In this document: positions 1 through 11,773 of the stretch, one piece after another
Layout of the letters: each line of letters starts with the position of its first letter
How positions within the stretch are numbered: the stretch's first letter is position 1
DNA from: Octopus sinensis
Taxonomy: Eukaryota
Length of the DNA: 11,773 nt
NCBI RefSeq assembly: GCF_006345805.1
Contig: NW_021826972.1
Location: 1 to 11,773, forward strand
Direction: 5' to 3'
Made by a program: the position numbers and the translations under genes
Notes under the pieces: generated by a model
What the model was told of the DNA's origin: nothing
Databases searched by the model: none
Seen by the model: the letters and a program-made list of their open reading frames with translations, nothing else

Positions 1-189
1 TAGAAACAGAATGAACGATTAAAAAAATAGAAAAGAAAGAATAAAGTGCTGCACAGGTAAAAACGAAACAAAAAGGAAGTCAGAAAAGAATGAAAGAATG
101 GCGTCAAAAATGAAGATGGAAGGAAATGAAGAAATAAGGAACGTATAACTAAAGAAGTGATAAAAGCATAGAAAAACAATTGAATGAAA

Positions 190-190
<1 letters not shown>

Positions 191-248
<58 letters not shown>
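191..248. repeat. (AGT)n microsatellite
   Basis: Uninterrupted AGT triplets. Confidence 0.97.
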
Positions 249-640
249 TGAGGGGAGGAGTAGGGGGGAAAGGGAGGGAGGAGGAAGAGGGGGCAGAAGA
301 CGAGGAAGGGAGTAGAAAGTAGAGGGGATAAGAATAAAGGAGTTGAGAAGGAGACGGTAGAGGTGAAGGAGAAGGTAGAGGTGGGGAAGAGGACGTAGAA
401 GAAGAAGAAGAAGAACAACAACAACAACAACAACAAAGAACAAGAACAAGAACAAGGACAAGGAGGAGGAGGAGGAGAATAATAATAATAATAAGAAGAA
501 GAAGAAGAAGAAGAAGAAAAAGAAGAAGAAGAAGAAGAAGAAGAAGAAGAAGAAAGAAGAAGAAGAAGAAGAAGAAGAGGAAAAAGAAGAAGAAGAAGAA
601 GAAGAAGAAGAAGAAGAAGAAGAAGAAAAGGAGGGGTAAG
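249..640. repeat. Purine-rich compound microsatellite (GAA/CAA/GAACAA/GGA/AAT/GAA)
   Basis: Successive triplet and hexamer runs; long (GAA)n at about 494-627. This is the source of the poly-F/L/S ORFs in the track. Confidence 0.95.
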
Positions 641-920
641 AACAAATGATAGCAATTGAAAGAAGAATTTGAAAGATTGTTATAATTAGAAATAAGAAGC
701 GTGATGTGGGCGAAAGCGGCACAAGTCAAAGACTGTAAGGAGGCGGATGAGATAGCTTCATTCTAACGACAAGGACTGGAAGAGAATATTGGTTGGAGAG
801 AAAGTTTAAGAGTGAAGACAAAAGATACACTGATAGCTAGCTGAATTATGAAAATGGAAAAAGGAACTAAGTTCCAGTGTTGGAATACTGAGAGAAATTA
901 GGAAGAATCTTTAAAGGCGT

Positions 921-1666
921 AGGAGGACAAACAAGGACAAAGGGATAAAGTCGAATTGATCGACCCCAGTGCGTAACTGGTACTTAATTTATCGACCTCG
1001 AAAGGATGAAATGCAAAGTCGACCTCGGCGGAATTTTTACTCAGAACGTAAAGACAGACGAAATGCCTATTTCTTTAGTACCCATAAGGGGCTAAAAACA
1101 GAGAGGACGAATAAGGACAGACAAAAGGGATTAAGTCGATAATATCGACCTCAGTACGTAACTGGTACTTATTTAATCGACCCCGAAAGGATGAAAGGCA
1201 AAGTCGACCTCGGTGGAATTTGAACTCAGAACGTAGCAGCAGACGAAACACCTATTTCTTTACTACCCACAAGGGACTAAACACAGAGGGGACAAACAAG
1301 GACAGACAAACGGATTAAGTCGATTATATCGACCCCAGTGCGTAACTGCTACTTATTTAATCGACCCCGAAAGGATGAAAGGCAAAGTCGACCTCGGTGG
1401 AATTTGAACTCAGAACGTAACGGCAGACGAAATACCTATTTCTTTACTACCCACAAGGGGCTAAACACAGAGGGAACAAACAGGGACAGACAAACGGATT
1501 AAGTCGATTATATCGACCCCAGTGCGTAACTGCTACTTATTTAATCGATCCCGAAAGGATGAAAGGCAAAGTCGACCTCGGCGGAATTTGAACTCAGAAC
1601 GTAGCGGCAGACGAAATATTGCTAAGCATTTCGCCTGACGTCCTAACGTTTCTGCCAGCTCGCCGC
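921..1666 (-). mobile_element. tRNA-derived SINE (family B, Meta-domain-like): one head plus four tandem ~184-bp body units, the last 3'-truncated
   Basis: Minus-strand head has A-box-like TGGCAGAAACG and B-box GAGTTCAAATTC. Central GTCGACTTTGCCTTTCATCCTTTCGGGGTCGAT..AAGTACCAG resembles the MetaSINE domain (from memory). Unit boundaries at 1067/1068, 1252/1253, 1436/1437 and 1620/1621 (periods 185, 184, 184). Confidence 0.9.
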
Positions 1667-2354
1667 TGGCATTAGATACATATGTTTTATATAATACACA
1701 TACTCTCACACACATATAGAGAGAAAGGAGAGTGAGAGTGAAAGAGGAAATTTAGAGGGGAAATAAAGAAAATAGGGAGACGGAGGAAACAAGATTGAGA
1801 GACAGTGGGAGACAGTGGGTGACAGCGAGAGAGCATTAATGGCGTGTGTAAATAGTTAAGATAATTCGGGTTGGCAGGAATTTGTTAAATCGCATCCAAA
1901 GAAGATCTAACACTGTTTATATAAAAGTTGGAGCAACCACAACGAGCGAGATAATTGAGAAAAGACCTAAGAAATAAAGAAGTAAAGGAAAATTAGAAAG
2001 AATGAGGAAAGGAAGAAAATGAATGAGGGAGTGAAAAACAGAGGGAGAGAGAGAGAAGTGATGATATAAGGTATTGGTTCGACTTTCGTTATTAACAGGA
2101 GCAAGTGAAAGGACGTAACAAGGGAAGAAAGGTAGTTATATATGGGCTGCGTGTGCACATGCATACATATACATATCTGCATGCTCAAACACACTCCCAC
2201 ATTTGTGTGTGTGTGTGTAATAAAATCTTGGACTTTAATGAATGCCTTTTAATGTTCGTTAGCCATCGTCAAGAAAGCAGACATTTTGTTTATTAAGGAA
2301 TGTTGCTAAAATTGTTGATGCATAGATGTTTTAAGTATTTGGATGTAAGCTTAA

Positions 2355-2490
2355 ACACACACACATACACACACACACACACACACAAACAAACAAACAA
2401 ACAAACAACACACACACAATCTCTCTCTCTCTCTTTCCTTTTCTCTCAGATATACATGTATGTGTACTTACAGACATATATATATATATG
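2355..2490. repeat. (AC)n/(CAAA)n/(CT)n/(TA)n microsatellite cluster
   Basis: Directly visible simple repeats. Confidence 0.9.
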
Positions 2491-2492
2491 TA

Positions 2493-2888
2493 GGCGTAGG
2501 AGTGGCTGTATGGTAAGTAACTTGCTTACAAAACACATGGTTCTGGGTTCAGTCCCACTGCGTGGCACCTGGGCAAGAGTCTTCTACTACAGCCTCGGGC
2601 CGATCAAAGCCTTGTGGGTGGATTTGGTCGACGGAAACGGAAAGAAGCCCGTCGCATATATGCATATATGTATGTATATATGTATGTTTGTGTATATGTT
2701 TGTGTGTGTATGTTTGTATCCCCAACATCACTTGACAACCGATGCTGGTGGTGTGTTTACGTGCCTGTAACATTAAGGGTTCGGCAAAAGAGACCGATAG
2801 AATAAGTCCTGAGGTCGATTTGCTCGACTAAAGGCGATGCTCCAGCATGGCCACAGTCACATGACTAAATCAAGTAAAAAGAAGAGTA
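2493..2888 (+). mobile_element. tRNA-derived CORE-like SINE (family A), near full length
   Basis: A box TGGCTGTATGG at 2503-2513, B box GGTTCAGTCCC at 2546-2556, CORE-like GGCACC(T)TGGGCAAG, internal (TA/TG)n, AAGAGT-type tail. Homologous to 4250-4593 and 8182-8998. Lacks about 22 nt lying between two AATAAGT-like direct repeats in the 8182 copy. Confidence 0.9.
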
Positions 2889-3169
2889 TACATACATACA
2901 CACATAATACACACACATATATATGTACGTATATGTATGCATACATGTAATTATATATCTGTATATGTCTCTATGTATCTATCTCTTTGGTTGTGTGTGT
3001 GTATGTGTGTGGTGTGTGTGTGTGTGCGTGCGTGCGTGCTTTCAGTGACTACTTGGTATACATACAGAGACTTCTCCTCGACGGTGACTTGCATCTTGCT
3101 GAATGGGTGGATGGCAGATGGTAACCTATTGTACACACACTCACACACATACACCCACCTACACACACA

Positions 3170-3210
<41 letters not shown>

Positions 3211-3226
3211 TACAAACATACACATA
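2889..3226. repeat. (TA/TG/TGCG)n and (AC)n microsatellites flanking a short complex island (3040-3131)
   Basis: Directly visible simple repeats. Confidence 0.9.
3046..3120 (+). CDS. Candidate 75-nt internal coding exon, gene not identified
   Basis: Complex, GC-richer island between microsatellites, bounded by CTTTCAG| and |GTAACC; length divisible by 3. Two open frames: DYLVYIQRLLLDGDLHLAEWVDGR and TTWYTYRDFSSTVTCILLNGWMAD. No homologue recognised. Confidence 0.42.
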
Positions 3227-3605
3227 CGCAGTTTTTTGTAATCCTGAATCATCAGGAAAAAATAGAACGGGAAGCTGAGACGACGGGTGGAGGGGTAGTG
3301 AAGCGATGTCAATTCTATTCTTAGAGATAGGAACTACTCGTGTTTGGTGAATTTAAGGTGAATAAGGGCACACCGTTACATGTCACAAACTGGCAGTGGG
3401 AATAGGTCGAAGGTAAGGGAGGCGAGATATTTGAGGATGTTTACACCACTTATACCAAGAACAAAATTCAAAATTAGAATATATCGAGACTAAGTGTAAA
3501 TGTTTAAAGCATTCTACACATTTTGGTGCAGGTACACAAATATGTGTGCGCGTATCTGTATATATGTGTGTCCTTTCCGTCCTTGTTTTTGTATACATTC
3601 GCTGC

Positions 3606-3728
3606 TTTCTTCCAAGGAATCTAATGCTCTTAGCTTAAGTTTTCCTTGGGGCTGGCCAGATTGGAGTAATCTCAAGAATAATCAGCCAAAATTACGAGGA
3701 TAATCTGGTGCTTCACTGAAGAAAGAAA
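3606..3728 (+). ncRNA. Non-circularly permuted hammerhead-like motif, copy 1 (GAAA mutated to AAAA)
   Basis: GTAA-TC^-TCAAG at 3666-3676; AAAA-TTAC at 3688-3695; CTTCA-CTGAAGA at 3711-3722. Helices: TTTCTT/AAGAAA (3606-11/3723-28), CCAAGGAA/TTCCTTGG (3612-19/3642-49), GGCTG/CAGCC (3650-54/3683-87), CCAGATT/AATCTGG (3656-62/3702-08). Confidence 0.7.
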
Positions 3729-3884
3729 ACTTCAAATGACCCGTTGTTTTTTTCTATGTATCGTCTGTCTGGATGTTTTATTGTCCCTTTTTATATCACC
3801 TAGCTGTCCGGATGGATTGCGTTCTTGTCCCATTTTGTATATATATATATATATATATACGTACACTTTGGTCTTTTATATATA

Positions 3885-3930
3885 TGACGTCCTGTACCCA
3901 TATACATGCATATATGGGTACAGGACGTCA
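3885..3930. repeat. Perfect 20-bp inverted repeat with 6-nt spacer
   Basis: TGACGTCCTGTACCCATATA-catgca-TATATGGGTACAGGACGTCA. Confidence 0.97.
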
Positions 3931-4009
3931 CCAATGGTGCAAATAACATGAAATACGTAAACAGCAAGAAAAGAATGAAAAACAGGACAAGTAAACACAT
4001 AGAGAAAGG

Positions 4010-4130
4010 ACCCTTCATCGGTTGTCGGCTGTCTATCTACTCCCCATTTCGAGCATTCAACGACAATATGAATCTTCAAAGACAGTCGCTCCCGTAAATT
4101 CTAAGATGAAATTTATTATTTATGGAGGGT
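4010..4130 (-). ncRNA. Non-circularly permuted hammerhead-like motif, copy 2 (CUGAUGA mutated to CCGAUGA)
   Basis: Minus strand: TTCA-TA^-TTGTCG (4072-4061); GAAA-TGGG (4050-4043); CGACAA-CCGATGA (4027-4015). Helices: ACCCT/AGGGT, CCATAAAT/ATTTACGG (1 mismatch), GAGC/GCTC, CTGTCT/AGACAG, in the same order and register as copy 1. Confidence 0.72.
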
Positions 4131-4150
4131 TAAAGTTGGGAACAAAAACC

Positions 4151-4182
4151 CATATATATCTATATACATTCATATATCTATC

Positions 4183-4218
<36 letters not shown>

Positions 4219-4243
4219 GTGTGTGTGTGTGTGTGTGTGTGTG
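4151..4243. repeat. (TA)n/(TG)n microsatellite
   Basis: Directly visible. Confidence 0.92.
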
Positions 4244-4249
4244 TCTTTA

Positions 4250-4593
4250 AGCTCTTGTTTCAGTTTTTTTGACTGCAGACTTGAAGAATTTGTAGTTGAA
4301 CGTATCGATCTCAGTATGTAGTTTTTTAAAAGTCTGGGACTTATTCTATCGGTACTTATCCTATCTTTTGCCGAACCTAAGCTACGAGACAGTAAATACA
4401 CCACAACTGGTTGTCAAGCATTGGTGGGAGGACAAACACAGACGCAAAGACACATACACGCGCGCGCACACATACACACGTATATACATATATAACGGTC
4501 TTCTTCCAGTTTCCATCTACCAGATCCACTCACAAGGCTTTGGTCGGCCCGAGGATATAGTAGAAGACACTTGCCCAAGGTGCCACGGAGTTG
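4250..4593 (-). mobile_element. Family A SINE, 5'-truncated and more diverged
   Basis: 4495-4587 is the reverse complement of about 2561-2653. 3' motifs (TTGCCGAACC, TTGTCAAGC) are present; the tRNA head is absent. Confidence 0.85.
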
Positions 4594-4780
4594 GTAGGCA
4601 CATAGGAGACGCAACCTTATACCGATCAGCCTACGTCGTGTTTCCACCGTCTCGCTCCCTGTCCGTTCTTTGATGTTGTCCAATCACTTCTTTCCTAGTA
4701 TTTCTATACCTCGTCAGTTGGGCATATTTGTTTTTGCTTGATCATATACGCTGAGAATAGAATGTCATTGTGTCATACTA

Positions 4781-4979
4781 CAGGGTGCGGCAGAAATACC
4801 TCGCACACTTTAAACCTTCACCTGTGTTTATGCAAGTGCCAATGATGTTTTCATTTAGCTAATGAACAAAAACTGTAACCCTTTGTTTAAACAACATTAA
4901 AATTAATTGTTCATAAATCTTGTTTCTTTTTTCCATTTGTCAGCCTTTTAAATGTGGGAGGTATTTCTGCTGCACTCTG
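4781..4979. mobile_element. Tc1/mariner-type MITE, 199 bp
   Basis: TIRs CAGGGTGCGGCAGAAATACCTCGCACA vs CAGAGTGCAGCAGAAATACCTCCCACA (24/27 identical). TA on both sides (4779-80, 4980-81). Removing it rejoins the LINE frame at H-V. Confidence 0.88.
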
Positions 4980-5019
4980 TACATGAATAAGCCACTTCAT
5001 TTTCCGCCTCTTGACAGAA

Positions 5020-5332
5020 TAAAGGGGAAAAACTCCCCCGGTCATGAATGACCATAGGATTGCATCTAGAAAGTTCCCCTCCGAGGCACAAGTCCGAGCA
5101 AGGTTGTTTATGGAAAACCAGCAGTCGCCCATGCATACCAGCCTCCCCTCTCCATACCACGGATGTTATCCAAGGGAAAGGCAAAGGCCGATACAGCAAT
5201 TTATTGTAGATCATTGAAGCTGTTATGACTGACGTAGGTTACACTCCCTAGAAAGACTAACTAAATTTATGGCAAGTAACATAGAGCCGTAGTGAAATAA
5301 AGTGTCTTGCTCAAGAACACAACACACAGCCT
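5020..5332 (-). mobile_element. Partial SINE-like insertion (family C) within the RTE remnant
   Basis: GC-richer block interrupting LINE homology. Begins GGCTGTGTGTTGTGTTCTTGAGCAAGACACTT, a typical SINE central-domain start. The 3' part resembles an octopus repeat (from memory). Confidence 0.6.
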
Positions 5333-5954
5333 GAATTTCGTAATTAGTATTCTTATTAGCAAGATTTTCTTTAAACTCTTGTTAGTTCAACGGTTTCATA
5401 TGGAATGTAAAGCTTCTTTCCATAATATTTCATTACAAAGGTCATAATTTTTCAACGTCTTTGGTTCAAAACTATAACGTAGATTTAAAAAATCTATGAT
5501 ATTAAAAAAAGTTTTTTACTTTATTATTATTCTAATCTTTATATTTTTTCTTCACAGTTTTTAATTTGATAAAACCGGCGTAGTTGCTACAATCTTGAAT
5601 TTGACTTCTTTCTTTACTTCCAGCTTTTCCTTATTGTCCTTCCAAAATATACAAGCTTATGAAATTGCTTGAGATTCCTCCTGTATTTTAGTTGGATTGA
5701 CAATAATTGTTTCCTTACTAGTTAGCATTATTTTACTTTTTGCAGCTCTTATTTCCATTCTGTATCTTATTGCAGTAACATCAAGATACGTTGCAGGAGC
5801 TCTAGTTGTATCACGAGATATTGCAGTATATCTTGATAAAACTATTAAGTTTATGTCAACGGCATAACAGAAACTTATGACATTTATAACTCTTTAAAAT
5901 TTCCTACAAAACAAATACAGTAAACAAGTATAGAAAATATTCTATTAGCATATT

Positions 5955-6700
5955 CAAGAAGTTTGGTTTTTATATTACAGTAACCGCAAACAAAAGGAAA
6001 ATGAACTCTCTAGATAAAACATCAGAGCTAGCATTTGATAGAATTTAACCATATAGAATGTCTTACAAGGTGTTCTTGCATATAGATAAAAATTCTGCCT
6101 TTCCAATATATTATAATACTTACTTAGTAATATTGATATCTAATCTATTTTCAGGCAAGACAATCTGATATAAAACAAACAATTATTACAATAATGCTTA
6201 AGAAAAAGCAATTTTAAAGAACAAATCAGTGTCTTACTCAAACGCATCTTCCTTCGGCAAAATCAAAATCAAATGTAGATTGAAATTTCTTAAATCTAAT
6301 ATAGAAAAAACAGCTTAGAAACGTGGTAAAACACACTGTTTAACAAAATAGATGTCAACATCAGTTACAGCTGTAAGAAAAATGTTTGCAAGTATAATTA
6401 GTAATATTCGAGTAGCCAGTCAAAACAACATTGAATAAACTGAAAATAAGTGTTGAATAGAATAGAACTTTTTTTTCTCAACAAAATCAATAGTGAAGTC
6501 AGCCTGATATTCTTCGTCGGTACAATAGAAAAATGTATATATTAATTACATATCCAACTTTGGGAATCTAGAATGAAAAAGTTCCACAACATTGTCTAGA
6601 TATGTGTGCCATTTGAAAGACCGGCGTGTTGACCATGTTGACACCTACTGGACAATCGTTAGAAACTGCAGATCTTATAATAAGGAAAGACCACATTGAC
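5955..6700 (+). mobile_element. Second, heavily decayed RTE-like RT remnant, divergent from the first
   Basis: Collinear weak motifs: FGF (about 5962), AFDRI (6031-6045), RQD (RQG; 6153), LKSNIEKT (GLKxNxxKT; 6289-6312), LK..RVDHVDTYWTIVRN..RP (6613-6693; compare WAGHV..DxRWT..GRP). Motif spacing is shortened, implying deletions. Confidence 0.5.
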
Positions 6701-6941
6701 AACACTGCATAGCAGGAAAGCACAAGACACAAAGATGCTTCAAAATGCCTTTACTAAACATTCTACCTGACGAATTGTAACATTAAAATAGAATCAGATT
6801 GAAATAGTGAGCATAAAAAATAGGTCCAACCGGTTGTGTACAAAACACCGTCCCTAAATGTGCTTAATGTGTGTGTACTGTGTATATAAGTGTGTGCACA
6901 TGTGTGTACGAGTGCATGTATACATATAGGTGTATATATAT

Positions 6942-7358
6942 AAGTCGACGAGCTGGCAGAAACGTTAACGCGCCGGGCGAAATGCTTAGCGGTATTTTGT
7001 CTGTCGTTACGTTCTGAGTTCAAATTCCGCCGAGGTCGACTTTACCTTTCATCCTTTCGGGGTCGATAAATAAAGTACCAGTTTCGCACTGGGGTCGATG
7101 CAATCGCCGTAATCCTTTTGTCTGTCCTTGTTTGTCCCCTCTGTGTTTAGCACCTTGTGGGTAATAAAGAAATAGGTATTTTGTCTTTCGTTACGTTTTG
7201 AGTTCAAATTCCGCCGAGGTCGACTTTGCCTTTCATCCTTTCAGGGTCGATGAATAAAGTACCAGTTTCGCACTGGGGTCGATGCAATCGACTTAATCCC
7301 TTTGTCTGTCCTTGTTTGTCCCCTCTATGTTTAGCCTCTTGTGGGCAATAAAGAAATA
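6942..7358 (+). mobile_element. Family B SINE: head plus two 184-bp units, flanked by an 18-bp target-site duplication
   Basis: Units 6991-7174 and 7175-7358. TSD ATATAGGTGTATATATAT at 6924-6941 and 7358-7375. Confidence 0.92.
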
Positions 7359-7599
7359 TATAGGTGTATATATATTAAACTTTGATGCTCTATCAATCTG
7401 AAAAGTGCTGCAGAATATTAAAATTTATACCAGTTATGAAGTTGTTCAGTGACTCAGAAACAATTTTTTTTTGCGAATATAGCTCTTCTCTTCCTACGAA
7501 TTTTTGACTCGATGCCAATTCGGCAAATAAAAATAATTAAATTGATTGACTAACACCCTGCAACAACGAATTCGAGTACTGTGGTAGTTCTGCATGAAA

Positions 7600-7775
7600 C
7601 AGTTGCCAAATCTCCCTCAAATGATACTTTACAGTAATAAAAAAAAAATACTTTGAAAAATGCACTCCCATGTTCACTACACATAAGAACAGGAAGAGAT
7701 AGTTAAGAATAGAATGCTTTTGATCATAGATCTGCGCGGTTTAATTAACTTAAGGCTAAACACCAGGAACAAAAG
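7600..7775 (+). mobile_element. Possible old SINE 3' fragment
   Basis: TTGCCAAATCTCCCTCAAAT...GAATGCTTTTGATCATAGATCTGC...GGCTAAACA resembles the end of an octopus repeat (from memory only; no second copy in the window). Confidence 0.35.
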
Positions 7776-8510
7776 CAAAACCTTCCTATAATTTCTATTT
7801 GTAGTGGACGAGATCAACAAGATACAAATGTTTTGGCCGCAGGAACAAAACGGCATCATTGAAATTATATATAAAATACAATAAATAATTGGCTAAAAAT
7901 CTTATATTTCAGTAATTTCGTTATCAGGGTCCATAGTTTAGACTGGATACTTTCACTTCTTGGGCGATGTTTTTTTGTAGGAAAAAGATATGATTTGTGG
8001 AAATCCTAGCTAATATTCTTGAGCTTCAATGCATTTTGTAATTTTATCTACCGCTTTTACCTTCTTTTCCTTTGCGTTTCTTTATATATTTATTTATTAG
8101 GATTTTTTGGTAGTTCTTATTTTTTGGGATTCTTTTTTTCTCTTCAACGTTTAACGTGGTTATTGTTGTATTTAAGTTGTATTTACTCTTTTACTCTTTG
8201 CTCTTTTACTTCTTTCAGTCATTTGACTGTGGCCATGCTGGAGCACCGCGTTTAGTCGATCAAATCGACCCCAGGACTTATTCTTTGTAAGCCTAGTATT
8301 TATTTTATTGGTCTCTCTTGCCGAACCGCTAGGTGATGGGGACTTAAGCACACCAGCATCGGGTGTCAAGCGATGTTGGGGGAACAAACCAGACACACAA
8401 ACTTATACACCCACCACACACACACCACACATATATATATATATATATATATAATATATTATATATATATAATATATATATATATAATATATATATATAT
8501 TATTTATATT

Positions 8511-8761
8511 TGAATAGTTGAATGATTATCTTATTATGGATAATTCGAAAGATAACCGATACCGTCCATGGGCTCCTTGAGGCGGTCAGCTAAAAGTTTT
8601 TTGTGTGCATTTTGATGTCGACATAAAGTTCCTTCATTTTCCTGATGAGAAATCTGCATAATGTACTCCTTATTCCTTCAGAATTAAGAATATGGCAGCC
8701 TCGAAACATATGTCGAGAATAAAGGATATTTGTTAACTAGTCGTTTCAACTCCATTCTTTC
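8511..8761 (+). mobile_element. ~250-bp hammerhead-carrying element embedded in (TA)n (Penelope-like pLTR or retrozyme-like)
   Basis: Flanked on both sides by long (TA)n; absent from the other two family A copies; imperfect inverted ends at 8512-8528 and 8738-8757. Confidence 0.7.
8630..8726 (+). ncRNA. Type I hammerhead ribozyme
   Basis: Stem I TCCTTCATTTTC/GAGAATAAAGGA (11 of 12 paired, one GU); CTGATGA at 8642-8648; stem II GA/TC plus CTGC/GCAG with a long insert; GAAA at 8703-8706; palindromic stem III ACATATGT; GTC^ at 8712-8714. Confidence 0.85.
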
Positions 8762-8766
8762 ATATA

Positions 8767-8828
<62 letters not shown>

Positions 8829-9792
8829 TTATATACGACGGGCTTCTTTCAGCTTCCGTCTACCAAATCCACTCACAAGGCTTTGGTCGGCCCGAGGCTA
8901 TAGTAGAAGACACTTGCCCAAGGTGCTACACAGTGGGACTGAACCGGGAACCATGTGGTTGGTAAGCAAGCTACTTACCACACAGCCACTCCTACGCCTG
9001 TATATTTCTCCATTTTCTGTACTTCTTTACTTACCCCCTTACTACATTTTCTTACAGATATTTCATGCTAAGGAATTGCTCACTTTTTGCTAACATACTT
9101 TTACTATATTTTTACCTGTGTTTCCTTTGTAAGCTTTTCAATATCATTCAATTTTCAATAGCATTTAAACTAAATTAATACATTAAACATACTATTTTCT
9201 AAAGTTAATTCTATTTTTCCCTAGTTGTCTAATTCCTACCGATAAGGCGATTACCTTAAATACGTCTACCTTCGTAAGTCTTCTCACATTACATCTAAAA
9301 TACAAAACTATTAGGAATTGTTGACAATTTAGTTTTCGATTTCAATTCTTCAATCATCTCTTTTATAATCATCGCCAAATTTCTTTCTTTTCCTGCAATC
9401 TCTCTTTTCCCTTATCTTCTACTTCTTCCTACAACTTTCCCTCTTAGCCTATATTCCCAAAACAATCTCCATCGTTACACTATTTCCTTCTCCTTTTTTT
9501 CCCTCCGTCTCCTCTGCATTCAATTCTTCTATTTCTTCTTAATACTTTCCATGATTGAAGAGATAGCAATGTTTTCAAAGATTTCAGCATGTTCGTATTC
9601 TTGGAATAATTGCAAGCCGTTATGAAGTAGTGTACATTATCAACAAAGCAAACAGAGACAGCGAACAACGTTTCGTGCCTAGCTCAGGGACACTGCTGCA
9701 CCACAGAATGGCTTTAAGATTTGTACTAATGGCATTATCCATAACCTTTGCCTTCAACTATATTCATCATACAATTAAATATTAGCGTGATT

Positions 9793-10056
9793 GTATGTAT
9801 GGTTGTATGTATGTATGTATGTAGGTATGTGTGTATGTATGTATGTGTGTATGTATGTATGTATGTATGTATGTATGCATGTGTGTATGTATGTATGTAT
9901 ATACATATATATTTAAATATATATATGTGTATATATATATGTATATATATATATATGTATATATATATATCTATATATATGTATATATAATATATTGTAT
10001 ATGTATATATATGTATATGTATATTATATGTATATATATGTATATGTATATATATA
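9793..10056. repeat. (TATG)n grading into (TA)n microsatellite
   Basis: Directly visible. Confidence 0.95.
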
Positions 10057-10277
10057 CACAGAGGGATAACTATATGTAATCACATAGACATACAAACTAT
10101 GTATATTTTGTACTGTGTGTTGTGATTGATTGAGTGAGTGGAGAGAGAGAGAGACAGGAACAGAACAGACAGACAGATTGAGGGAGTGTACGAGTGTACA
10201 TTGAAACGGTGTGTCGAACTAACATGCCTTGTTTTATTTCGAACCAATTCGGTTATACATTTTTTTTAATTCACGCT

Positions 10278-10422
10278 CCACTTCATCTTTCATCTTTCTT
10301 CAGAGTTGATTTTAAAAAGTACAAGACGACCATACAATGTGCATGGGTCGATATGATCAACTAAACCTCTTGAAGGCGTTTTCAAAGCCTGGCTGCAGTT
10401 CAGAGACTGAAGCAATAGAAAG
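10278..10422 (+). mobile_element. Old degraded SINE fragment
   Basis: GGGTCGATATGATCAACTAAA...GAAGGCG...GCCTGGCTGCAGT...GACTGAAGCAA aligns with the family A 3' end. Upstream CTTTCATCTTT...AAGTACAAG weakly resembles the family B domain. Confidence 0.5.
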
Positions 10423-10980
10423 GAAGGCAGTAAGAACAAGAGTAAAGAATCAGATAGAGGAAGAGGAGGTATGAGAGGCGAGGTAGCGAAGTGGTGAGGA
10501 GGAGGAGGAGGAGGAAGAAGAAGAAGAAGAAGGAGAAGGAGAAGGAGGAGGAAAAGAAGAAGAAGAAGAAGAGAAGAAGAAGGAGAGGGAGAAACAGAAA
10601 AGAAGACGAAGAAGGCGTAGGGTTCGATAGGAGGAGGAAAGGAAGAAGTAGAAGAGGAAGAAGAAGAGGGAAGAGGGAGAGAGAAGAAGAAGAAGGAAGA
10701 ATAAGAAGAAGAAGGAAAATAAACAGAAGAAGAAGATGAATCAAAGTAGAAGAAGAAGAGAAGAATAAGAAGAAAAGAAGAAGAAGAAGAAGGAAGGAAG
10801 AGGGAAGAGGTAGAGAAGAAGAAGAAGAAGGAAGAAGAGGGAAGAGGTAGAGAAGAAGAAGAAGAAGAAGAAGAAGAAGAAGAAGAAGAAGAAGAAAAAG
10901 AAGAAGAAGAATCGAAGTGAAAGTAGGTAGAATCGGGAGAAAAGGAGTAAGGAGGAGGAGGAGTAGGAGGAGGCAGAGGA
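10423..10980. repeat. Long polypurine (GAA/GGA)n tract
   Basis: Directly visible; includes repeated GAAGAGGGAAGAGGTAGAGAAGAAG blocks. Confidence 0.95.
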
Positions 10981-11157
10981 ATGTGACAACGTCGACAACA
11001 ATGGAAGTTTTCTGATTTTGAGATTAGCAGAAAAGTTTGCTTTTCTATTTTCTGGACTGAACAAATTCGTAGCAAAGACTGTCAATTTAATCGATGTACA
11101 CCATCGGTCTCAGCCAAAGAACATTTTTGTATCGGCCGAAGATGAAGACAGTTGTGA

Positions 11158-11176
11158 GGGTGGGGTTGGGTGGGGG
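11158..11176 (+). other. Potential G-quadruplex
   Basis: GGG-T-GGGG-TT-GGG-T-GGGGG: four G-runs with 1-2 nt loops. Confidence 0.55.
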
Positions 11177-11375
11177 TGGCAACCAAAAGATTGTTGGAGC
11201 GAAGTAGAATGAATCGTGAGGAAAAATGTGTGTTCTTCATCTTCATCAGATCGAGATAATATTTTGACATCCTACGCTCATGGAACTTATCCTCCGCCTT
11301 GCTTTCTCCATGCTTGAAAGCCTACAAATTGTATTTATCGCAGACACTAATGACCAAAGAGACTTTTCCTTTCAG

Positions 11376-11479
11376 ATATGAGTATCAGGGCTTTCACCCC
11401 CATCCTCCACCGTCACCCAACGCACCTTGAGACGAATCGTCTCAAGTCGCCATCAGCGAGCAGAAACGGAATGCAATGA
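11376..11479 (+). CDS. Candidate terminal coding exon, gene not identified
   Basis: Branch-like CACTAAT (11345-11351), then CTTTTCCTTTCAG acceptor, then GC-richer sequence. Frames: YEYQGFHPHPPPSPNAP* (stop 11428-30) or MSIRAFTPILHRHPTHLETNRLKSPSASRNGMQ* (stop 11477-79). AATAAA at 11685-11690. Confidence 0.42.
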
Positions 11480-11773
11480 GACAGACTACGTGTGTCCGTC
11501 GTGAAACACACGTCCACATCGTATCGTGGAAGTGGTAGGCGTGGCGTTTCGGTGAATCCAGTTCGCAAATTAGTTTCGTCCCTAAAGCCCATCGAGAAGG
11601 CATGAATCTCAATCTCCCATCGCTCCTTCCCCTTAGCTCCTCTCCTCGAAAGTTCAATTAGCGGTTAATTGGCAGATAGTTGCAAATAAAAATTCCAAGC
11701 TAAAGACGAAAAGCAGACAATCGATGTTTGACTTCATCTCACAGACTTACATTAGATAAGTAAGCCTTGAAAT

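Follow-up and report, generated by a model that had tools for sequence, protein, structure and literature searches.

The window, that is, the whole stretch of DNA analysed here, comprises 11,773 nucleotides of the Octopus sinensis assembly GCF_006345805.1 (contig NW_021826972.1, positions 1 to 11,773, forward strand). Within it, a truncated element of one family (A, plus strand) and a truncated element of another (B, minus strand) meet tail-to-tail at a single TA tract. Each contains a decayed copy of a hammerhead fold in which the cleavage site (block S) comes first, GAAA (block G) second and CUGANGA (block C) last, and no meaningful open reading frame was found over either copy. The features of the two elements are as follows:

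3571..3838, plus strand: family A element, non-autonomous, 5'-truncated, running into a (TA)n microsatellite (ends approximate, from coverage by other copies)
3606..3728, plus strand: copy A, type-SGC hammerhead fold, decayed (G12A at 3688)
3596-3601, plus strand: copy A, distal extension of Pa, with a partner near 3733-3738
3606-3611, plus strand: copy A, Pa 5' strand
3612-3649, plus strand: copy A, whole hairpin P0 (strands 3612-3619 and 3642-3649)
3650-3654, plus strand: copy A, Pb 5' strand, with a G predicted to pair with C11.1 (3687), standing in for stem II
3656-3662 and 3702-3708, plus strand: copy A, distal III
3666..3676, plus strand: copy A, block S (proximal III strand, U16.1-C17, stem I 5' strand)
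3666-3669 and 3692-3695, plus strand: copy A, proximal III
3670-3671, plus strand: copy A, UC (U16.1-C17), predicted cut after 3671
3672-3676 and 3711-3715, plus strand: copy A, stem I
3683..3695, plus strand: copy A, block G (Pb 3' strand, GAAA, here AAAA, proximal III strand)
3683-3687, plus strand: copy A, Pb 3' strand
3688-3691, plus strand: copy A, AAAA in place of GAAA
3711..3728, plus strand: copy A, block C (stem I 3' strand, CUGAAGA, then Pa 3' strand)
3716-3722, plus strand: copy A, CUGAAGA
3723-3728, plus strand: copy A, Pa 3' strand, where a stem II strand would be expected
3839..3883, plus strand: (TA)n, then about 25 nt of the start of the next family A unit (by comparison with the unit start in L009)
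3884..3931, no strand assigned: palindrome of the element B 3' end and a short inverted copy of that end
3909..4152, minus strand: family B element, non-autonomous, 5'-truncated (ends approximate)
4010..4130, minus strand: copy B, type-SGC hammerhead fold, decayed (U4C at 4020)
4130-4126, minus strand: copy B, Pa 5' strand
4125-4118 and 4099-4092, minus strand: copy B, P0
4091-4088 and 4054-4051, minus strand: copy B, Pb
4068-4067, minus strand: copy B, UA, predicted cut between 4067 and 4066
4050-4047, minus strand: copy B, GAAA
4021-4015, minus strand: copy B, CCGAUGA
4014-4010, minus strand: copy B, Pa 3' strand

A short tail such as that at 3839..3883 is among the features described for Penelope-like elements (PMC8557442). 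All motif parts that a sequence-only reading of the window had named in the two copies were found where it had placed them. Its view that the copies are decayed also holds, as both core changes (3688 and 4020) are copy-specific and the intact letter is in the majority in each family (G at position 3688 in 27 of 30 family A copies, T at 4020 in 28 of 32 family B copies). Some of the helix letters it had quoted are decayed as well (e.g., 3714, 4072 and 4044). The two RNAs are indeed dissimilar in sequence, with no significant BLAST match between them (best E 0.25). Since they have in common a CTAA/TTAG extension of P0 and a linker ending in AAT, they are probably distant homologues rather than independent inventions.

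Elsewhere in the window, tandem 184-bp units of one interspersed family lie in opposite orientations at 936-1618 (plus strand) and 6991-7358 (minus strand). Pieces of abundant SINE-like repeats, which also flank many of the examined loci, were observed at 2486-2880, 4399-4594, 8204-8400 and 8831-9005. The segment 8628-8728 (plus strand) contains a candidate canonical type I hammerhead of the minimal Penelope-like kind (8642-8714), with CUGAUGA at 8642, GAAA at 8703, a predicted cut after 8714, 9 of 10 pairs in stem I and a short palindromic stem III.

Searches of the source genome returned 3,661 first-look candidates for family A and 3,199 for family B; 40 were scored in each case, at 91-93% and 86-90% identity, respectively, the window copies aside. 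In both families the 5' ends differ from copy to copy, the 3' end is shared and (TA)n lies on the flanks. The proposed mobile-element origin is borne out, A and B each being a decayed copy of a high-copy, non-coding retroelement family. Families C and D were found through divergent neighbours of these first families. Copies of C are 99% identical to each other and form head-to-tail arrays with a period of 774-785 bp at nine loci. A near-identical family C sequence was also observed in contigs of three organisms (L096:1270-2040), which places this family beyond the present assembly. A variant of C from which the whole P0 hairpin is gone occurs at 3 of 100 sampled places (L270, L289 and L290), two of them in tandem, and P0 may be dispensable for mobility.

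Three further families (E, F and I) came from a generic core pattern consisting of UH, a linker AAT, CGAAA, 22-28 nt and CUGANGA, which occurs at 7,095 places in the genome compared with 44 for the reversed control. Twenty of the first 100 places of this pattern were examined; besides these families they included three apparent chance matches (L164, L168 and L173), in which the helices were absent. Additional families or subfamilies that share the fold are represented by one or two copies apiece at other loci (L165, L167, L169-L171 and L174). Together with a Naiad family (N), eight families were compared, among which A, C and D are close kin. Most copies carry the full CUGANGA, GAAA and UH: the core is intact in 108 of 153 distinct copies over the eight families, with 23/30 in A, 17/32 in B, 12/12 in C, 19/22 in D, 7/12 in E, 6/10 in F, 7/12 in I and 17/23 in N, the last having been partly selected with a core-containing pattern.

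A descriptor of the full architecture, composed after the motifs had been seen, has exactly two matches in the window, copies A and B. Any match to it arose in 1 of 2,279 dinucleotide shuffles and two matches in none (0/2,279). A looser, core-only descriptor is not rare, with at least one match in 328 and two in 20 of the 2,279 shuffles. Over 525 kb of collected loci a strict descriptor gave 78 matches, all inside known families, and the genome-wide search with the generic core pattern returned thousands, far above the reversed control. The shuffles and reversed-pattern controls together rule out a chance origin of the motifs. The motif also escapes the standard models of types I-III, as had been anticipated, with no hammerhead family among 70 Rfam matches in the window up to an E of 10. 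Canonical types I-III, including ones formed across tandem units, are excluded by the lack of pairing among the strands that flank CUGANGA and GAAA, and the circularly permuted order of these types is absent, the observed order being S > G > C.

The helices were assessed by comparison among the families. The commonest letters of the eight families pair at 35/40 in Pa, 32/32 in P0, 40/40 in Pb, 38/40 in distal III, 24/24 in proximal III and 40/40 in stem I, and two-sided changes are found at 25 of 27 positions with all six helices represented, including all nine scored positions of Pa and P0. Cross-family pairs were scored from core-anchored positions, as, upstream of GAAA, MAFFT failed to bring B and N into line with A, C and D; the registers of P0 and distal III were set by eye, and those of the other helices were fixed by the core or the ends of P0. 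When strands were swapped among families, the observed pairing was reached in 4-48 of 40,320 permutations of all eight and in 1-12 of 720 permutations of the less related A, B, E, F, I and N only. MAFFT was also used to align 14 copies (A, C, D, I and one further subfamily) without regard to structure. In that alignment 95.6% of cells pair, slid registers reach 17-46% (maximum 45.6%), and both sides change in 14 of 21 pairs; Pa and P0 were omitted from this scoring because family I is misregistered there. All 13 letters of the catalytic core, including UH, are kept in families otherwise unlike in sequence, and stem I and stem III, which flank the predicted cut site, both show two-sided changes. 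Nested folding, in which pseudoknots are not modelled, recovered Pa and P0, with the Pb 5' strand often paired with the CUGA core or other helices; z-scores were -1.4 and -0.5 for the window copies and -0.5 to -3.0 for six sequences. The covariation on which the sequence-only reading had staked its proposal is thus present in all six helices, and with the intact cores it supports the non-circularly permuted, pseudoknotted order UH > GAAA > CUGANGA. Sequence comparison establishes this order, the intact cores of most copies, the covariation of six helices and the lack of a direct stem II.

In every family the strand after CUGANGA is unpaired with the strand before GAAA, with at most two of the first four direct pairs. 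All four letters (A, C, T and G) occur at position N10.1 among the families. Position N11.1 holds C in 8/8 families, each time with G as the partner in Pb. The usual hammerhead consensus has a G10.1-C11.1 pair, which the G-C11.1 pair supplied by Pb mirrors. Our inference is that Pb represents stem II, its 5' strand being detached and delivered from upstream, and that Pa and P0 build a four-arm junction with Pb and the sheared G-A pairs. Pb would stack under G12-A9, giving the usual G-C11.1 pair from the upstream strand; the strand after A9 would cross into Pa, Pa would stack on P0, and the four-arm junction would hold the upstream strand. Pa, P0 and Pb had been described as abutting without linker nucleotides, which applies to families A, B, E, I and N and fails in family C, where a 2-nt spacer separates P0 from Pb. 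At its base, Pa has two U-pyrimidine mismatches in families C and D, and Pb is bulged in family F. The gap between distal III and stem I is only 1-3 nt, leaving no room for a I-II interaction helix at the described place, and Pa and P0 may take the role of a helix that links stems I and II at their far sides. The linker from stem I to Pb ranges from 1 nt in family N to about 6 nt ending in AAT in the others (window 3677-3682 and 4060-4055). This AAT end was observed in 7/8 families and in several published Naiads, which suggests a tertiary contact.

The role given to the junction is where a simpler architecture differs from ours: stem I, stem III and Pb (acting as a detached stem II) would be the only helices that matter, with no obligatory four-way junction and with Pa and P0 as an accessory scaffold or protein-binding element. 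We consider this the lesser prospect, at long though not negligible odds. It accommodates the spread of the P0-deleted family C variant, the missing Watson-Crick pairs at two junction-proximal Pa positions in C and D, the spacer in C and a P0 that ranges from about 6 bp to a long hairpin. It does not readily account for the retention of Pa and P0 through two-sided changes at every scored position over eight families. Both are also visible by eye in published ctenophore, cnidarian, crustacean and cephalopod Naiad 3' ends (PMC8557442), among which Naiad_Bfor shows the same U-U/U-U at the base of Pa as seen here.

Naiads were reported to be without canonical hammerheads, with eight entries, one from an octopus, marked 'HHR_half_core' (Craig et al., 2021; PMC8557442). 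In the supplement of that paper, the last 330-500 letters of the consensus 3' ends of 53 of 54 sequences were read by eye. Eleven of the 53, from four phyla, show the S > G > C order and Pb, plus Pa and P0 where in view (Bfor, 3_Chem, 2_Movir, Amil, Aacu, Anas, Plae, EuTe, Obim, Ovul and Esco; Pa and P0 are mostly out of view in Plae and Pb is decayed in Esco). These eleven comprise ctenophore, cnidarian, cephalopod and acanthocephalan entries and one that, to judge from its abbreviation, is presumably from a crustacean. The nematode Naiads 1-3_Nbra, Hcon, Hpol and Asuum were observed by eye to have type-CSG ends with an ordinary stem II; these six ends have a I-II interaction helix and differing stem sequences. 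Only two CSG sequences are contained in the work of Eckert et al. (2023; PMC10085705). The spider Naiad_Smim follows S > G > C; its stems I and III are long, and the arrangement of its stem II is ambiguous. The remaining 3' ends, including those of bivalves and hemichordates, show by eye neither SGC nor CSG in the letters given. A different, recurring G+C-rich motif lies right after the ORF in CGi, Sglo, Olur, Tgra, Skow, Pfla, Chem-1 and Chem-2; it has no hammerhead core in view and is possibly another structured RNA.

In the source genome the octopus Naiad 3' motif has 184 matches and its control 0, and at L157, L158 and L160 it lies downstream of reverse-transcriptase frames on the same strand. 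The reverse-transcriptase frame of family N matches RVT_1 with an E of 9.6e-5, at 22.6 vs 29.6 bits and so below the Pfam cut-off, Pfam gave no match for two short reverse-transcriptase fragments, and the frames of L156 match the published Naiad_Ovul protein by eye. Judging from these sequences, an autonomous Naiad element of the source genome ends at its 3' side in the same fold, and the co-occurrence of motif and Naiad reverse transcriptase is established at this level, as are the tandem units. A likely self-cutting RNA of this SGC-junction form would explain the report that Naiads lack a hammerhead. The single ORF of Naiads, which encodes GIY-YIG at the N terminus and reverse transcriptase at the C terminus, is absent from the non-autonomous A and B. 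No intact Naiad frame was present among 149 matches to a reverse-transcriptase fragment (longest open frame 320 aa), so mobilisation of families A to I by a Naiad is argued from the fold and the mode of insertion common to both.

The 5' ends of insertions offer a possible footprint of cleavage. For the C/D group, a pattern anchored 3' of the ribozyme occurs at 4,120 places, of which the first 100 were taken and their matching ends mapped, +1 being the first base 3' of the predicted cut. Ends fall at +1 to +20 in 25 of 93 copies at risk, compared with 22/562 pooled over eight other intervals from +56 to -119 (Fisher p 4e-11, an optimistic value as some rows are duplicates or tandem neighbours). 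Seven rows classed as having internal deletions were left uncounted as ends, two probably wrongly (L284 and L215), and L306 is mispositioned, outside all intervals. Read by eye, the first 100 of 137 family B places include about 25 that end in the pile-up and 3 that end in the 29 nt upstream; for family A the pile-up takes 16 of the first 100 of 398 places and the 20 nt upstream take 5. The pile-up, whose edge is sharp at +1 in three sequence families, is evident from sequence comparison and coincides with the cut sites predicted earlier (after 3671 and between 4067 and 4066). Among inverted or re-started B copies, some have their end precisely at +1, six of the 25 C/D ends lie at one TAAT microhomology (+8), and about 70% of copies continue through the predicted cut site. 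As a genomic sign of the predicted cleavage in vivo, the pile-up provides indirect support.

Stalling at structure is a poor explanation of these ends, because the 3' strands of all helices are already copied when a reverse transcriptase arrives at +1 to +11. Transcription may start at the pile-up site, and such a start forms part of an explanation that we regard as improbable, in which the fold is non-catalytic or protein-dependent and the ends reflect a promoter start or microhomology of the AT-rich linker to (TA)n. Pseudo-LTRs of Penelope-like elements do contain transcription starts (PMC8557442), the hammerhead of the Anolis element is inactive without protein (PMC11167929), and the TAAT at +8 is in keeping with microhomology. 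Yet this explanation leaves unaccounted for the conservation of all core letters, UH included, across dissimilar families, the sharp edge at +1 in three of them with inverted or re-started copies ending exactly there, and the lack of any excess of ends in other AT-rich parts of the elements.

Overall, with a probability of roughly 80%, we take A and B to be decayed members of high-copy tandem retroelements with the order site-GAAA-CUGANGA, whose intact RNA likely self-cleaves after UH with Pb as the predicted stem II. Tandem transcripts would be cut in cis into units of about 630-785 nt, and a Naiad reverse transcriptase/GIY-YIG protein would nick (TA)n. Reverse transcription would then start internally at the TA junction, which lies some 170 nt downstream of the cut, and run-off at the cut 5' end would give short copies starting at +1 to +20. 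Read-through of uncut or re-ligated (circular) RNA would give seamless longer copies and head-to-tail arrays, and such templates would account for the copies that pass the site. Circularisation is here borrowed, by analogy, from type I retrozymes (PMC7229834), and internal initiation at AT-rich targets was shown for an Anolis Penelope-like element (PMC11167929). In vitro, hammerhead cleavage of the Anolis element, the one Penelope-like element so examined, needed protein and insertion did not require cleavage (PMC11167929), which tempers any claim that cleavage is essential. Cleavage confined to dimers, or to action in trans of one tandem unit on another, with the intramolecular double pseudoknot inactive, would suit the tandem arrangement and the published dimer cleavage of minimal Penelope-like hammerheads, but is still less probable than a non-catalytic fold given the long, non-palindromic stem III (4-5 bp plus a distal helix), the distance of about 775 nt between units and the cleavage in cis of monomeric type-SGC RNAs (PMC10085705). 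Because young, intact natural copies exist, each claim about the self-cleaving RNA can be tested with a short in vitro transcript. Intact copies include L096:1497-1641 in family C and L007:1523-1664 in family A.

With less assurance, we lean towards the broader view that Naiads of several phyla and thousands of non-coding parasites carry a four-block, non-circular hammerhead whose stem II 5' strand is separated from CUGANGA and supplied through an obligatory four-way junction, that cleavage in vivo sets the 5' ends of insertions, and that nematode Naiads carry type CSG. If so, non-circular hammerheads would be common in animal genomes and no longer metagenomic rarities.

A literature search that took in few subscription papers gave no account of non-circular hammerheads from Naiads, cephalopods or animal genomes. 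Work by Weinberg et al. (2015), reportedly on hammerhead variants that carry additional helices, may be relevant to novelty. The accessible parts of Forgia et al. (2023; PMC10162972) contain no comparable variant, PMC13725137 in the part available only cites hammerhead variants, and a 2026 retrozyme preprint, as far as accessible, treats type I only (bioRxiv 10.64898/2026.07.22.740005). The S > G > C order itself was named type SGC by Eckert et al. (2023; PMC10085705) for HRIMA-1 and its variants. The comparison with rearranged hammerheads thus places the present motifs in a named order, and what stands of the suggested novelty is the remodelled stem II and the setting in animal retrotransposons. 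In that paper, as far as available, block C was assumed to be indivisible and the examples were metatranscriptomic, with none in the genome of a known organism save for one GCS candidate; a keyword search of its supplement gave no 'octopus' and no 'Metazoa'.

The minimal type I hammerheads of canonical Penelope-like elements have the same core and likewise lie near the element 3' end, but are circular permutations in the order C > G > S with a direct stem II, unlike the motifs described here. Non-LTR retrozymes of animals (Cervera and de la Pena, 2020; PMC7229834) are similar in being non-coding, head-to-tail units with one hammerhead each, and their mobilisation by Penelope-like elements has been proposed (PMC7229834; bioRxiv 10.64898/2026.07.22.740005). 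However, they have type I hammerheads and units of about 170-400 nt, in contrast to the SGC-junction form and larger units seen here, which point to the Naiad clade. The Naiads (Craig et al., 2021; PMC8557442) share (TA)n targeting, 5' truncation, tandem and inverted structures and a short tail, all of which are present here, and family N corresponds in both 3' end and protein to the octopus Naiad already in print. Neither A nor B is autonomous, and their tie to Naiads is drawn from the shared ribozyme fold and insertion habits. For the published puzzle of Naiads that proliferate 'without' hammerheads and have unexplained half cores, the fold offers a direct answer. The insertion ends would also give a genomic read-out of predicted ribozyme cleavage during Penelope-like retrotransposition.

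The closest system is type SGC, with which the motifs have in common the block order, the core letters, mutually crossing helices and a short linker, typically 3 nt in type SGC, joining stem I to the strand before GAAA. In type SGC, stem II pairs block C with block G, whereas here its 5' strand would come from upstream; Pa and P0 are added here, and no I-II interaction helix is seen at its described place. The motifs would work in a hammerhead-like manner and follow the SGC order, yet lack the stem II feature of every described type. This breaks the stated rule that CUGANGA and the stem II strand form one block and would widen the hammerhead fold. The separation of CUGANGA from the stem II strand explains why descriptor searches have missed such hammerheads. 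Type SGC was known from metatranscriptomes of uncultured organisms, and the copies described here bring non-circular permutations into animal genomes, in thousands of retrotransposon copies.
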